Shown: positions 6,001-9,000 of the stretch, one piece after another
Numbering within the stretch: the stretch's first letter is position 1
Layout of the letters: every line of letters begins with the position of its first letter
Position numbers: made by a program
From: an archaeon GW2011_AR18
GTDB taxonomy: Archaea > Nanobdellota > Nanobdellia > SCGC-AAA011-G17 > GW2011-AR18
DNA: 54,653 nucleotides
Assembly (NCBI GenBank): GCA_000806155.1
Contig: JWKX01000014.1
Location: 1 to 54,653, forward strand
Reading direction: 5' to 3'

Positions 6001-9000
6001 TTTAATAAAGAAATGCCCTAAGACCCAGATTATTGTTAAATATACAAATAATCTTATTGATGAATAATATATGGGTAATACTATTATTCCTATTCCTATT
6101 GCTGATCCTATCTGATCTATTATTGGTAATGTCTCTCCTGGTTTTACTCTCATTCTTCTTTTAACAAAACTTCCTAATGCATCCCCAAACATTACAGCAA
6201 TTCCTATTAATATTCCAAATGATATTATATTAATCTCTTTATAATTAATTAAGCTTATTGCATTGAATAAATAATTATCATGTAATATTCCTTGTATTAT
6301 ACCTACTATTATTGCTCCTATTACTGCAAATATTACCCCTCTGAATGTCTTATGATCTCCTAATATTCTTTTTTTATTAAATTTTTTCTTGAAATCTAAC
6401 GGATAATCTAAGAATTTAAAATGGTTTTTTACAAATACTGGCATCATGTTAGATATTGCAGCCGGTATTAAGAAATATATTATTGATACTATATCCATTA
6501 TTTTTCACCTAGTTTTTTATCTATTATCTTAAATAATTCATTATTTCCTGGGTTATAGCTTTTTTTCTTATATATCTTAAGATTAATTAAAAATTTTCTT
6601 AGATTCTCTTCAGTTAATTCTTTGTACATATTTCCATAATTATTCTCATTTACATATAATGCATTCAAGTATTGTTCAAATTGTTTTTTTATTGGTATTA
6701 CTAATATTGGTTTTTTTAGATAAATAGCCTCACTTATTAGATTAATTCCCCCAGTTGTGATTACTGCTTTACATTCTTTTATATCTTTATCAAAGTTTTC
6801 TTCTGAAAAGTTCTTAAATGTTATATTATTATCTTTTGATTCTTGATTGAATCCATATACTATAAACTCTTCTGAAAATTTTTTTAATTCTTCCAGTATT
6901 TTCTTATTTTTTGTTATTGATAAATATATTAATACACTATTTTTCACTTTTTTCTTGTTTTCTATCAAGCTTTTTCTTATTACAGGATCTATTCTGATTG
7001 CTTTAGACTTATTTTTTAATTTTTGTCCTGGTAATGTCAATACTATGTTCTCATCTGCTTTATTATATCCTACTACAAATTTAGATGTTAAGTAATCAAA
7101 TATCTGAAATTTAGGTATAGTGTAATTTCCATCTGTGATATAATGTTCATTATCAAATGTTATGCTTTTAATATTGTTTTTTTCTGCATAATATAATGTT
7201 CCTGGTTCGAAGTCAGATATTACTATCTCAGGATTGAATTTATCTATTTGTTTTAATGTTTCATTATCTATATAATCCTTTTTAATAAAGATCTTATAAT
7301 TCTTAAAGAATGTTTTTATTGCTGATACAGAATTGTTATTGTTTAATATCAGTTGTAACCCTTTAGCATAATACACATTATCAAAATCCTTTTTCAAATA
7401 ATCATAAGCAGCTAATCCACCTATTATCATTACTTCATGTTTTTTCTTTAGTAAATACTCAATCAATATCTTGCTTCTTGTGTAATGACCAGCACCTACC
7501 CCGCAGACTCCATATAATATTCTCATATACTCTCTTGTTTATTATTTGTTTATATATTTTTAGGGGTCTACATTTTGAACAATTTCTACATTTAGGGGTC
7601 TACATTATTTTAGTAGAAACATTTATTAAATTCTTTCTTTGAACTATTAGTATGGAACCTTGGTATATCTTTGCAGTTATATGGGTAGCTATGGTTGCTC
7701 ACTCTTTTTGGGAAGCATCTATTGAAGGTTTGAATGCATGGGATAAAAATAAGTATGGTTGGAAATGGCAGATTCGTTATAATATCTCATTAACAAGGTA
7801 TCACTTCTGGTTATTCTTTGTATATCTTCCATTAATTATCATTTTATTGCCTATGGTTGTTGCAGGTTTTTCATTAAAATTATTCGGCATACTATTATCA
7901 GCATATTTGTCTGGTATGGTTATTGAGGATTTCTTCTGGTTTATTGTTAATACAGAGATTAAGTTTAAAGAATCATGGAATCCTAAATTCGCTTCTTATT
8001 ATCCCTGGTTAGTATTAGGAAGGTTCAGGATTCCTATAATTTACATAGCAGGTATTGGTTTATCATTATTAGCATGGTTCTTATTTGTTAGATAATTATC
8101 TTATCTTATAGAATCTTTCAGCATATCTGCATTTTGCATGGAATCCAGAAAAGAATGCTCTTATTATTACATGTGTAAATAATAAATAAATATACAATCT
8201 TTGGCTCTTGAACATCTTCATTGCTTTTATTTTTTTCCAGAATGTCTTGCTAACATCTACATATATTCTTGGATGTGTCTCATTTACTACATTCCATATC
8301 TCAAAAGCATACAAGTTGATTGTTTTTTTCTTGTCTATTATATCTAGTGCTTTTACAACAGACTGATGCACTCCTCTATGGTCTGGATGTGGATCTTGAT
8401 TGCTGTGTGTTAGTATTGTTTTTGGCTTGTACTCATTTATTATCTTTGCAATTTGTAATATCACTTTTTTCTTTGCTGCTTGATCAGTAATATTTCCATC
8501 AGGTAATCCTAGGAATAGTGTTGTCTCAACCCCTAAATATCTGTCTATGTTTGTTGATTCTTTTATTCTCTCATCTACTAGAGTATCTTTGTCAAGCCAT
8601 GGTGAGCTTTTATCTCCATTGGCAAATATTACTACTATTACTCTCTTGCCCTCTTCTGCATATCTAGATACAGTCCCGCCACATCCTATTACCTGATCAT
8701 CAGATACTAGGAATGAGCAGCCATCACTAGTATGGTCTCGCTCATTTTACTCATCACCTCCTTTCATGCCTAAAGCTTTCATTCTTTGAGGCAAAGTTTG
8801 TAATTTATCGAATTTCATCTATTAACTTTATTTCAAAACCTTTATAAATATTCTCTCAAACCAACTTTTTATGACAAAGGAATTAAAGTGCAATTCTTGC
8901 AGTACAAGGCTTACTAACCTTAATGGTTCTGTAGTTTTCAAATGCCCTAAATGTAACGAGCATGATCTTATTAGATGTACTCATTGTAGGAAGATAGTTG

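Follow-up and report, generated by a model that had tools for sequence, protein, structure and literature searches.

How can a metal-dependent enzyme be made from a gene that is interrupted within its metal-binding motif? The stretch of DNA analysed here, 54,653 nucleotides from the archaeon GW2011_AR18 (hereafter the window), contains such a gene on its minus strand. The gene begins with an ATG at 8745 and proceeds to the histidine codon CAT (8715-8713) and a TCC (8712-8710), which is followed by a TAG stop codon (8709-8707), the dinucleotide TA (8706-8705) and a TCT (8704-8702), and then by GAT GAT. Direct reading of the strand confirmed that the 8-nt gap described in the genome-wide survey's note is real, and omission of positions 8709-8702 yields a frame of 213 codons with one terminal stop. 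The first metal motif, HXD1D2, is complete only if the gap is skipped, and the second, H-x-D-H, is present. The downstream frame matches the Pfam family PIG-L, PF02585 (E 1.6e-25, 90.5 bits against a cut-off of 28.2), and it is the only PIG-L match in the genome, as had been claimed. The features of the locus are listed in Table 1.

Table 1. Features of the interrupted PIG-L gene and its leader in the window.
Feature	Position	Strand	Basis
TATA-like box (predicted leaderless promoter), 22 nt upstream of where the mini-ORF starts	8841..8848	-	sequence; function inferred
Mini-ORF of 23 codons, ending 1 nt before the PIG-L start; putative remnant of a deleted homing endonuclease gene	8747..8818	-	
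Strong Shine-Dalgarno, GGAGGTGAT	8753..8761	-	26/26 gapped vs 2/115 intact orthologs
Hairpin, start codon region (8745-8739) paired with Ala-His codons (8719-8713)	8713..8745	-	
First reading frame: 12 codons, for beta-strand 1, the metal-ligand His and Ser, then UAG	8707..8745	-	alignment to the 2IXD start through the intact ortholog in G001
Predicted take-off codon TCC (Ser)	8710..8712	-	sequence; role inferred
Coding gap of 8 nt: UAG, 2 nt, predicted landing triplet TCT	8702..8709	-	sequence
Second hairpin, take-off codon and stop in the 5' arm	8684..8712	-	-12.2 kcal/mol in the window
Downstream frame (201 residues, beginning with Asp-Asp): body of the PIG-L/LmbE deacetylase, including the second metal motif, H-x-D-H	8096..8701	-	

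The protein resembles the PIG-L/LmbE deacetylases, such as BshB (2IXD), in the HXD1D2 + H motif and by homology at the level of the fold, with an E-value of 1.5e-14 between an intact ortholog and 2IXD. Unlike the NCBIfam equivalogs, it scores below every cut-off (99 bits against 182.5 for BshB1). An assembly error was ruled out, as contigs from four other public runs, representing four studies, match over the place of the gap with no differences listed; two of these span it widely (X6, X11) and two have shorter flanks (X8, X16). A look for RNA data sets containing the locus listed none, which speaks neither for nor against its expression. A restart in the downstream frame was also rejected, since the ORF listing has its first in-frame start, a GTG, at 8464, and a protein begun there would lack the metal motif. 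The ortholog in G001, which is 89% identical to that of the window, is intact, and an identical gap of 8 nt is present in a more diverged genome (G002, 66% identity), in line with the earlier claim that it is shared. Another site with the same architecture, a Shine-Dalgarno followed by a short ORF and a long ORF in another frame, was searched for in the genome of the window; among the 47 candidates listed, all with the Shine-Dalgarno that the scan required so that a leaderless case would escape it, only the PIG-L gene looked on reading like a true start.

The order to which the window belongs comprises relatives of the Woesearchaeota and Nanoarchaeota; the hosts are tiny groundwater archaea. 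The survey's note had counted two cases among 239 genomes of the order and described the gap as one of 8 nt, and neither statement held. Immediately after the histidine codon of H-x-D-D, 26 of the 145 scorable orthologs, from seven families, are interrupted; here and in the other tallies of gapped and intact genes, related genomes are counted and kin are not independent. The gaps are 1 nt (three orthologs), 2 nt (seven), 4 nt (two), 5 nt (seven), 7 nt (five) or 8 nt (two) long, never a multiple of three, so the 8-nt form is one length class of six. No class of 3 or 6 nt was found among the 26 gapped orthologs, and an extra codon at this place occurs in none of 119 intact ones. The TCG/TCG alleles found here have gaps of 7 or 4 nt, and the family as a whole spans from a CCC-UGA +1 site to predicted hops of 8 nt. 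A pattern search for gaps of 6-9 nt with a stop codon gave no hit in 314 sampled genomes from other orders of the class.

The downstream frames are 198-204 amino acids long in all gapped orthologs, and H-x-D-H is retained in 25 of the 26. The dN/dS values are 0.05-0.20 in 11 gapped-gapped pairs versus 0.05-0.17 in 10 computable intact pairs; the pairs were picked by hand and the values include the time before the gap arose. The enzyme body of the gapped genes is under purifying selection, which together with its intact length agrees with the earlier suggestion of recoding instead of decay. If the gapped alleles were knockouts that yield no protein, their intact bodies would have to reflect a recent invasion or frequent reversion. 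Such a reading would fit the lack of a PIG-L match at E 1e-20 in 90 of the 239 genomes of the order, many of them incomplete, the loss of the 5' end of the gene at two loci (L082 and L132), and an allele in which the gap has gone but the leader remains (L069). However, the bodies are intact in 26 of 26 cases even though there had been time for deletion of the upstream endonuclease gene, described below, in 17 of them, and only gapped alleles have retained the hairpin and the Shine-Dalgarno. Furthermore, 50-59% of the synonymous sites have changed between three sisters that are all gapped (L031, L032 and L034), whereas their dN/dS values are 0.05-0.07. A knockout is therefore highly improbable in our view.

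The gapped genes also differ from the intact ones in their leaders. The strong Shine-Dalgarno noted previously in the gapped genes was found in all of them and is rare in front of intact orthologs (Table 1), and SD-like motifs of a slightly different pattern precede 21 of 667 long ORFs in the genome of the window. The hairpin from the start codon to the histidine codon likewise stood up to the larger sample, with a folding energy of -12.2 kcal/mol in the window and a median of -9.85 in the 26 gapped orthologs versus -2.5 in 112 intact ones. Its terminal stem has at least 6 bp in 22 of 26 gapped orthologs versus none of 112 intact ones, and stem positions 3-5 are paired in 27, 28 and 29 of 30 distinct gapped alleles versus 44, 12 and 34 of 112, with G-C, A-U and G-U pairs interchanging at position 3. 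The second hairpin, which was said to hold the stop, can form in the window, yet its family-wide support is weak, with a median z of -0.76 in 33 gapped alleles versus 0.0 in 120 intact ones.

Where the gap came from and what it is for are probably explained by a gene upstream of it, and by the remnant of this gene. A predicted free-standing LAGLIDADG endonuclease gene is located before nine of the 26 gapped orthologs (eight whole, one cut by a contig end) and before none of the 119 intact ones, as scored in about 150 nt of upstream sequence with an HMM built from eight of the nine. Both acidic LAGLIDADG-type motifs (AELIGxIxGDG and GIxDxDF) are kept in 16 of 16 endonucleases, whereas Pfam support is weak, with hits to a LAGLIDADG family at an E-value of 0.01 or below in three of seven (best 4.9e-5); the gene is predicted to encode a LAGLIDADG homing endonuclease. 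In a reciprocal search, all 13 metagenome loci with a long endonuclease match of at least 52% identity continued with a PIG-L gene, 12 of them gapped, representing 10 distinct gapped alleles of which four were identical to genome alleles; in L190, the endonuclease precedes an intact PIG-L gene. We also considered that the endonuclease might be intron-borne, with the true first exon further upstream, and saw no such exon in the 120 nt before eight endonuclease starts. Sixteen of the remaining 17 gapped orthologs, including that of the window, keep a leaderless mini-ORF, often with an endonuclease remnant, and a mini-ORF is also found upstream of 25 of 115 intact orthologs. The mini-ORF in the window has a T-L-P-Q-R stretch resembling the C-terminus of the endonuclease; since its score with the C-terminal HMM is only 0.5 bits, its homology rests on its position and on intermediates (L022, L099, L103 and L044; 19-26 bits).

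Thus, the gap, the endonuclease or its remnant, the Shine-Dalgarno and the start-to-His hairpin co-occur. Taken together, we consider it probable that they represent a homing cassette of the same kind as mobA and gene 60 in phage T4, in which the insert likely keeps the endonuclease from cutting its own allele, and the ribosome likely passes over it by re-pairing of the peptidyl-tRNA before Asp-Asp. Cleavage by the endonuclease would hit intact alleles where their codons are most conserved, and the repair would copy the endonuclease, a new leader and the first 11-12 codons with the gap into the cut allele. The window would represent a late stage, with the endonuclease already deleted. Alternatively, the recoding site may be a regulatory switch of the host and the endonuclease a hitch-hiker upstream with another target, for which a tRNA gene is a candidate, as several of the genes concerned directly follow one. 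The gap, hairpin and leader are kept in the 17 gapped genomes that lack the endonuclease, the trees are partly congruent, and L190 has an endonuclease without a gap, all of which would fit a switch. Against it speak the repeated loss of the gap in close sisters, with the leader and hairpin going too, the drift of the gap length over six values, and the finding of this endonuclease subfamily only before PIG-L wherever the contig shows the neighbour. On balance, a host switch seems very unlikely.

The distribution of the putative homing cassette in quick trees is patchy, with gapped alleles sister to intact ones in at least eight places. The 5' ends appear mosaic: the alleles of L040 (family f9) and L076 (f28) are 79 and 81% alike in the leader and first frame and 57-63% in the body, whereas L040 and its own intact sister are 43 and 56% alike in the leader and first frame and 76-80% in the body. 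Similarly, the window and G001 are 43, 64 and 67% alike at the 5' end versus 79-92% in the body. We take these patterns as an indirect sign of homing. However, the leader similarity could be inflated by shared constraint, and the patchy pattern could also stem from repeated loss of an ancestral cassette. The endonuclease and PIG-L trees, which are also quick trees, are largely congruent within family f4, which suggests much vertical descent, and conflicts elsewhere are poorly supported.

If the insert is not translated, it could be removed from the mRNA instead. Archaeal mRNA introns with a bulge-helix-bulge (BHB) structure are known from cbf5 (16-44 nt, PMC2738675), and we identified BHB introns of 18 and 24 nt in rpl11 in three genomes, two of which have an upstream endonuclease. 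Every placement that retains H-x-D-[DE], up to a length 60 nt above that of the gap, was compared with a model of a 4-bp central helix, two 3-nt bulges and flanking helices. In none of the 33 distinct gapped alleles, drawn from genomes and metagenomes, does a placement with H-x-D-D preserved fit the model; the best have three of four central pairs and at most one flanking pair. The rpl11 controls (L339, L342 and L343) fit, with 3-4 of four central pairs and 5 and 4-7 flanking pairs. BHB/BHL splicing was thereby ruled out, as the note had done on grounds of length for the BHB intron. A non-canonical cut and ligation, for example by the splicing endonuclease and RtcB on an unusual or trans-formed structure, is a broader possibility, consistent with the pairing of endonuclease genes with small introns in this lineage and with the location of most distant homologs next to tRNA genes, and the Ala and Thr triplets at the end of some gaps would then simply be decoded. 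We regard it as quite unlikely, as the gap is shorter than 7 nt in 26 of the 33 alleles, too short for BHB geometry. The junction repeats, of 1-3 nt, are also probably too short for realignment of a polymerase.

The remaining explanations are ribosomal, and here the codons on both sides of the gap are informative. In the genome of the window, the take-off codon TCC is rare, 2.0 per 1000 versus 26 for TCT. The note had emphasised matched serine codons and an adjacent stop, which holds for TCC-UAG...TCT in the window but is not a defining rule across the family, since 12 of the 33 alleles have no stop after the take-off codon and 10 have a landing triplet that is mismatched at the first position. 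A stop follows in 21 alleles, and CTG, CTC, CAG or CGG in the other 12; with codon usage in the genome of the window as a proxy for the other genomes, CTG, CTC and CGG are rare and CAG is not. In 23 alleles, the first two bases are the same in the take-off and landing triplets; the wobble class is shared in 29 and mismatched in four, and 19 alleles match fully or in wobble class and both first bases. The 10 mismatched alleles are the five-nt alleles, all of which combine a serine take-off codon with GCG, GCT or ACA (Ala/Thr). Four alleles consist of CCC-UGA, a known +1 frameshift site (PMC5009743), with the +1 frame continuing the gene; that of the window is not of this form.

These data can also be read without re-pairing, with the gap looped out while the tRNA stays in the P site and the following triplet decoded out of frame, or with a plain +1 or -1 shift that adds 0-3 residues between His and Asp-Asp. 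The landing triplets vary among Ser, Ala, Thr and Pro codons, partly synonymously (TCT/TCA/TCG; GCG/GCT) and much like residue x of the intact genes, a pattern expected from decoding of the triplet and not from landing on it. In 26 of 26 gapped orthologs, the target frame stays open over 11 nt or more before the histidine, and the 2-nt alleles would allow a -1 slip of tRNA-Ser from TCT to TTC. However, the spacing from His to Asp does not vary in the family, whose metal motif is HXD1D2 + H with ligands two residues apart (PMC4101496), and extra codons are absent from the intact orthologs, as described above. A plain shift would moreover have to differ in direction between alleles, +1 or -1, although their flanking signals are the same. 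In all 10 five-nt alleles, the landing triplet follows the take-off codon at its third base, with the same wobble class. Decoding without re-pairing is accordingly unlikely, and a hop, as proposed in the note, is still the best mechanism, although the 8-nt Ser/Ser form is only one class and the upstream LAGLIDADG gene had been missed.

At the start of the hop, the P site would be occupied by a rare Ser (or Pro) codon and the A site by a stop or a rare codon. The peptidyl-tRNA would detach, slide 1-8 nt, re-pair on an N-C-N triplet and resume at GAU or GAC, yielding H-S-D-D, or H-P-D-D from the 1-nt alleles. The weakest step is the putative role of the hairpin, which may refold behind the ribosome, push it forward and hide the start codon. 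With a hidden start codon, the gene would need the upstream ORF to be translated, and this need would account for the survival of the mini-ORF after the loss of the endonuclease.

Programmed bypassing is well established only for the T4-like gene 60 and for the byps in yeast mitochondria. The precedent for the cassette is the T4 mobA and gene 60 insert, as described in bioRxiv 10.1101/2022.08.31.505936. It shares with the PIG-L loci a free-standing homing endonuclease (here predicted) upstream of a conserved gene, an insert that breaks the frame at an invariant codon of the metal site, a stop or rare codon directly 3' of the take-off codon, a landing triplet that is wobble-compatible (here in most alleles), a 5' stem-loop, and the progressive loss of the endonuclease and then of the insert. 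The PIG-L loci differ in being located on an archaeal chromosome rather than in a phage, in the endonuclease (LAGLIDADG, not MobA) and in the target, which is PIG-L rather than a topoisomerase and is not split. Gene 60 has a gap of about 50 nt with a mini-SD 6 nt before the landing site, whereas the gaps are 1-8 nt here and the window has no GAG or GGA at that place; the nascent peptide is only 11-12 residues long, the 5' hairpin is conserved and contains the start codon, and landing triplets may be mismatched (10 of 33). The take-off stem-loop of gene 60, which has the take-off codon in its 5' arm, has a possible counterpart in the second hairpin of the window, with weak support over the family. 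The byps of Magnusiomyces capitatus mitochondria, from the same source, are also mobile inserts skipped in translation, with a hungry codon instead of a stop and tolerance of mismatched landing. These are 27-55 nt long and present in 81 copies in many genes, and no endonuclease is mentioned in that description, unlike the one site per genome found here.

The CCC-UGA alleles resemble the +1 frameshifting sites of the Listeria phage tsh gene and E. coli pheL and the synthetic "stop hops", in which the P-site tRNA slips at a slow A-site codon (PMC5009743); what sets the PIG-L position apart is the additional occurrence of 2- to 8-nt forms and the link to an endonuclease gene. Archaeal BHB mRNA introns (cbf5, PMC2738675; rpl11) are likewise small inserts at conserved codons, for rpl11 also beside a free-standing LAGLIDADG gene, but have the geometry that the PIG-L gaps lack. 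Sulfolobus fucA1 and haloviral genes (PMC8211752) are interrupted archaeal genes expressed by recoding, as predicted here, but by a -1 shift at a slippery heptamer or viral +/-1 shifts. In passages of that article, bypassing is named for T4 and Magnusiomyces only, and a literature search, with most subscription papers outside its scope, found neither an archaeal case nor a report on a gapped PIG-L gene.

The chances are about even that these genes represent the first programmed bypassing in Archaea and on a cellular chromosome, with a hairpin-driven slide that tolerates different lengths (+1, +2, +4, +5, +7 and +8) and some mismatched landings, and with a host gene that depends on the translation of a selfish gene upstream. 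If true, the strategy of mobA and gene 60 would have originated independently in another domain of life, with a different class of endonuclease. The 33 alleles at one codon provide a natural series that links +1 frameshifting to hopping, and makes testable both the relation between the two and the P-site pairing that a landing needs; for the five-nt alleles, a single peptide with Ser or Ala after His would discriminate. Gapped genes of this kind are prone to mis-annotation as pseudogenes or as truncated. In these archaea, free-standing endonucleases accompany two kinds of inserts in protein genes, BHB introns in rpl11 and what is probably a translation-level gap in PIG-L.

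The window gene encodes a PIG-L/LmbE deacetylase, the sole such match in its genome (G000), and is interrupted in the H-x-D-D motif. On the minus strand, the His codon is followed by TCC, UAG, two bases, TCT and the Asp-Asp codons. According to the accessible part of PMC4101496, the metal ligands in this family are the His and the second Asp, with the first Asp as the base and a fixed spacing, which places the gap in the active site. Contigs from four other runs concur with the window sequence at this site. The 8-nt interruption noted in the genome-wide survey is real, and interruptions of this motif are much more widespread than first described.

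Features in the window
Feature	Position	Strand	Remark
PIG-L start codon	8745	-	from sequence
Eleven codons ending in the His codon	8745 to 8715-8713	-	from sequence
Gap	8709-8702	-	omission gives a 213-residue frame
Mini-ORF	8818-8747	-	read as a late form of endonuclease loss from its position before the PIG-L start
Glycosyltransferase (PF13528) and CDP-archaeol synthase-like genes	5959-7526	-	closely downstream of PIG-L
tRNA-Gln call	53012-53076		
LAGLIDADG gene	53138-53770	+	PF14528, E 4e-14; just after the tRNA-Gln call

Searching the order's 239 genomes identified 150 places in 149 genomes; 146 of these (four truncated matches omitted), together with two weaker 5' fragments from a separate search, gave 148 loci. 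After exclusion of two loci without a 5' end and one cut by its contig, 145 were scored, 119 as intact and 26 as gapped. The gapped genes belong to seven families and are all interrupted directly after a CAT codon, which encodes the His in 92 of 119 intact genes. Gap lengths were 1 (three loci), 2 (seven), 4 (two), 5 (seven), 7 (five) and 8 nt (two); every one of the six values from 1 to 8 not divisible by three is represented. Two PIG-L genes, L082 (G180) and L132 (G037), lack the 5' end including H-x-D-D and directly follow a tRNA gene, possibly as a result of failed repair after cleavage.

The downstream frames of all 26 gapped genes encode 198-204 residues, and the third ligand motif, H-x-D-H, is retained in 25 of 26 gapped and 105 of 116 intact genes. 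The dN/dS values, for pairs picked from the tree and unable to date the gap, ranged over 0.05-0.20 for the 11 gapped-gapped pairs and 0.02-0.16 for the 12 gapped-intact pairs; the 10 of 12 intact pairs free of saturation gave 0.05-0.17. More than half of the synonymous sites have diverged in a trio that is gapped throughout (L031, L032, L034). Judged from these sequence patterns, the gapped gene is alive.

The survey's account did not include an upstream endonuclease and was incomplete in this respect. A LAGLIDADG-type gene of 289-316 residues, whose end lies no more than about 15 nt from the PIG-L start, precedes nine of the 26 gapped genes (eight whole, one contig-cut) and none of the 119 intact genes, as scanned about 150 nt upstream with a self-built HMM that is circular for the eight genes used in building it. 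Pfam support was weak, and both acidic motifs were present in 16 of 16 endonucleases. The less circular reverse search (E 1e-100 or better) located the subfamily in nine of the 239 genomes, eight times directly before a gapped PIG-L gene and once at a contig end. Among metagenome loci, each of the 13 whose long match reaches at least 52% identity continues into PIG-L, 12 gapped and one (L190) intact; L221, a short 62% match at a contig end, was excluded. In L190, the endonuclease overlaps the PIG-L gene and the codons after Asp-Asp differ, and the gene is possibly immune by divergence. An ORF of 22-34 codons ending at the PIG-L start occurs in 16 of 17 endonuclease-less gapped alleles versus 25 of 115 intact genes, often retaining the last residues of the endonuclease in the gapped alleles. 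L105 (G101) and L182 have identical 5' PIG-L regions and five-nt gaps, with the endonuclease in L182 and a 22-codon mini-ORF in L105, a comparison that captures endonuclease loss at close range.

In a quick tree of 142 full-length bodies, gapped alleles have intact sisters at eight or more positions, and the 5' ends are mosaic between alleles. Similarity between L040 and L076, from different families (f9 and f28), is 79% in the leader, 81% in the first frame and 57-63% in the body, versus 43%, 56% and 76-80% for L040 and its own intact sister. The window gene shares 43% of the leader, 64% of the first frame and 67% of the first 30 nt after the gap with its intact relative in G001, and 79-92% further on. 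In family f4, the endonuclease and PIG-L trees are broadly congruent, and vertical descent with repeated loss therefore accounts for part of the pattern.

A Shine-Dalgarno sequence precedes 26 of 26 gapped versus 2 of 115 intact genes (background in G000, 21 of 667 long ORFs), an excess that is partly a mere consequence of second place in an operon. In 22 of 26 gapped versus 0 of 112 intact genes, the start region and the Ala-His codons can pair in a stem of at least 6 bp, with interchange of G-C, A-U and G-U pairs. This stem tracks the gap, since it is missing in L190 (read by eye) and below 6 bp in L069 (G098), which has retained the leader and mini-ORF and lost the gap. The second hairpin proposed in the survey folds well in the window but is weak across the family.

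Genome and metagenome loci, with one further genome locus, gave 33 distinct alleles. From take-off to landing codon, these read CCC-UGA to CCT at 1 nt (n=4), TCT to TCT, TCA or TCG at 2 nt (n=8), TCG to TCA or TCG at 4 nt (n=4), TCG to GCG (n=7), TCC to GCT (n=2) or TCG to ACA (n=1) at 5 nt, TCG to TCG, TCT or TCA at 7 nt (n=5), and TCC to TCT at 8 nt (n=2); of the take-off codons, G000 seldom uses TCC, TCG and CCC. As the survey's note had argued, a BHB intron is rejected, with no fitting placement in any of the 33 alleles. BHB geometry does fit well in the same lineage in the in-frame, stop-containing inserts at one codon of rpl11 in L339 (18 nt), L342 (G154:C109:1401-1450) and L343 (G164:C26:14381-14430; both 24 nt), with three of four and four of four central pairs, and these are predicted from sequence to be introns in the mRNA of a ribosomal protein. 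Both L339, where rpl11 starts immediately after the match, and L342 have a LAGLIDADG gene upstream of rpl11, and none was seen upstream in L343; an endonuclease also precedes intact rpl11 in five other loci, and rpl11 of G000 is intact.

Several LAGLIDADG genes neighbor tRNA genes. One on contig C8 precedes an intron-bearing tRNA, and the most distant homologs of the PIG-L-linked endonuclease (L195-L341, 24-42% identity) adjoin tRNA genes, many intron-bearing, with a large set before tRNA-Gln(CTG). A tRNA-like gene lies just upstream in L031, L034 (G125, G123) and L150 (G124), with an apparent 3'-arm insert in two genomes (read by eye); in the third, the tRNA is preceded by a different LAGLIDADG gene.

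Polymerase realignment was set aside, as the junction repeats appear too short. CCC-UGA is a known +1 site in the accessible part of PMC5009743, and the 1-nt alleles have the leader and upstream gene in common with the longer forms; a single ribosomal mechanism is therefore the simplest reading. In this scheme, the tRNA that decodes the codon after His would slip forward and re-pair on an N-C-N triplet before Asp-Asp, and the start-to-His hairpin, by analogy with the T4 5' stem-loop, may push the ribosome and gate the start. Take-off and landing codons agree in the first two bases in 23 of 33 alleles and in wobble class in 29. The survey's ribosomal bypass reading is partly supported, but the first bases mismatch in all ten five-nt alleles and no stop is adjacent to the take-off codon in 12 of 33. 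These features, and landing triplets that vary as a decoded residue would, keep alive both out-of-frame decoding of the landing triplet and removal of the gap at the RNA level. Ribosomal re-pairing within an endonuclease cassette is the explanation we consider moderately probable.

In the accessible portions of bioRxiv 2022.08.31.505936, the upstream endonuclease of the T4 mobA/gene 60 cassette is described as spreading together with an insert. The insert sits at an invariant metal-site codon, protects against renewed cutting and is bypassed, and such cassettes progressively lose first the endonuclease and then the insert. The PIG-L cassette would work similarly, with cutting and bypass predicted, but does not belong to that class: endonuclease and target are different, as are host domain and gap size, and there is no mini-SD. 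The accessible part of a 2021 review of archaeal recoding (PMC8211752) names bypassing solely for T4 and Magnusiomyces, and no description of the PIG-L system was found in the parts of the literature searched. In the window, an unrelated ORF on the opposite strand separates PIG-L from the glycosyltransferase and CDP-archaeol synthase-like genes, which hint at a glycolipid as the substrate of the deacetylase.
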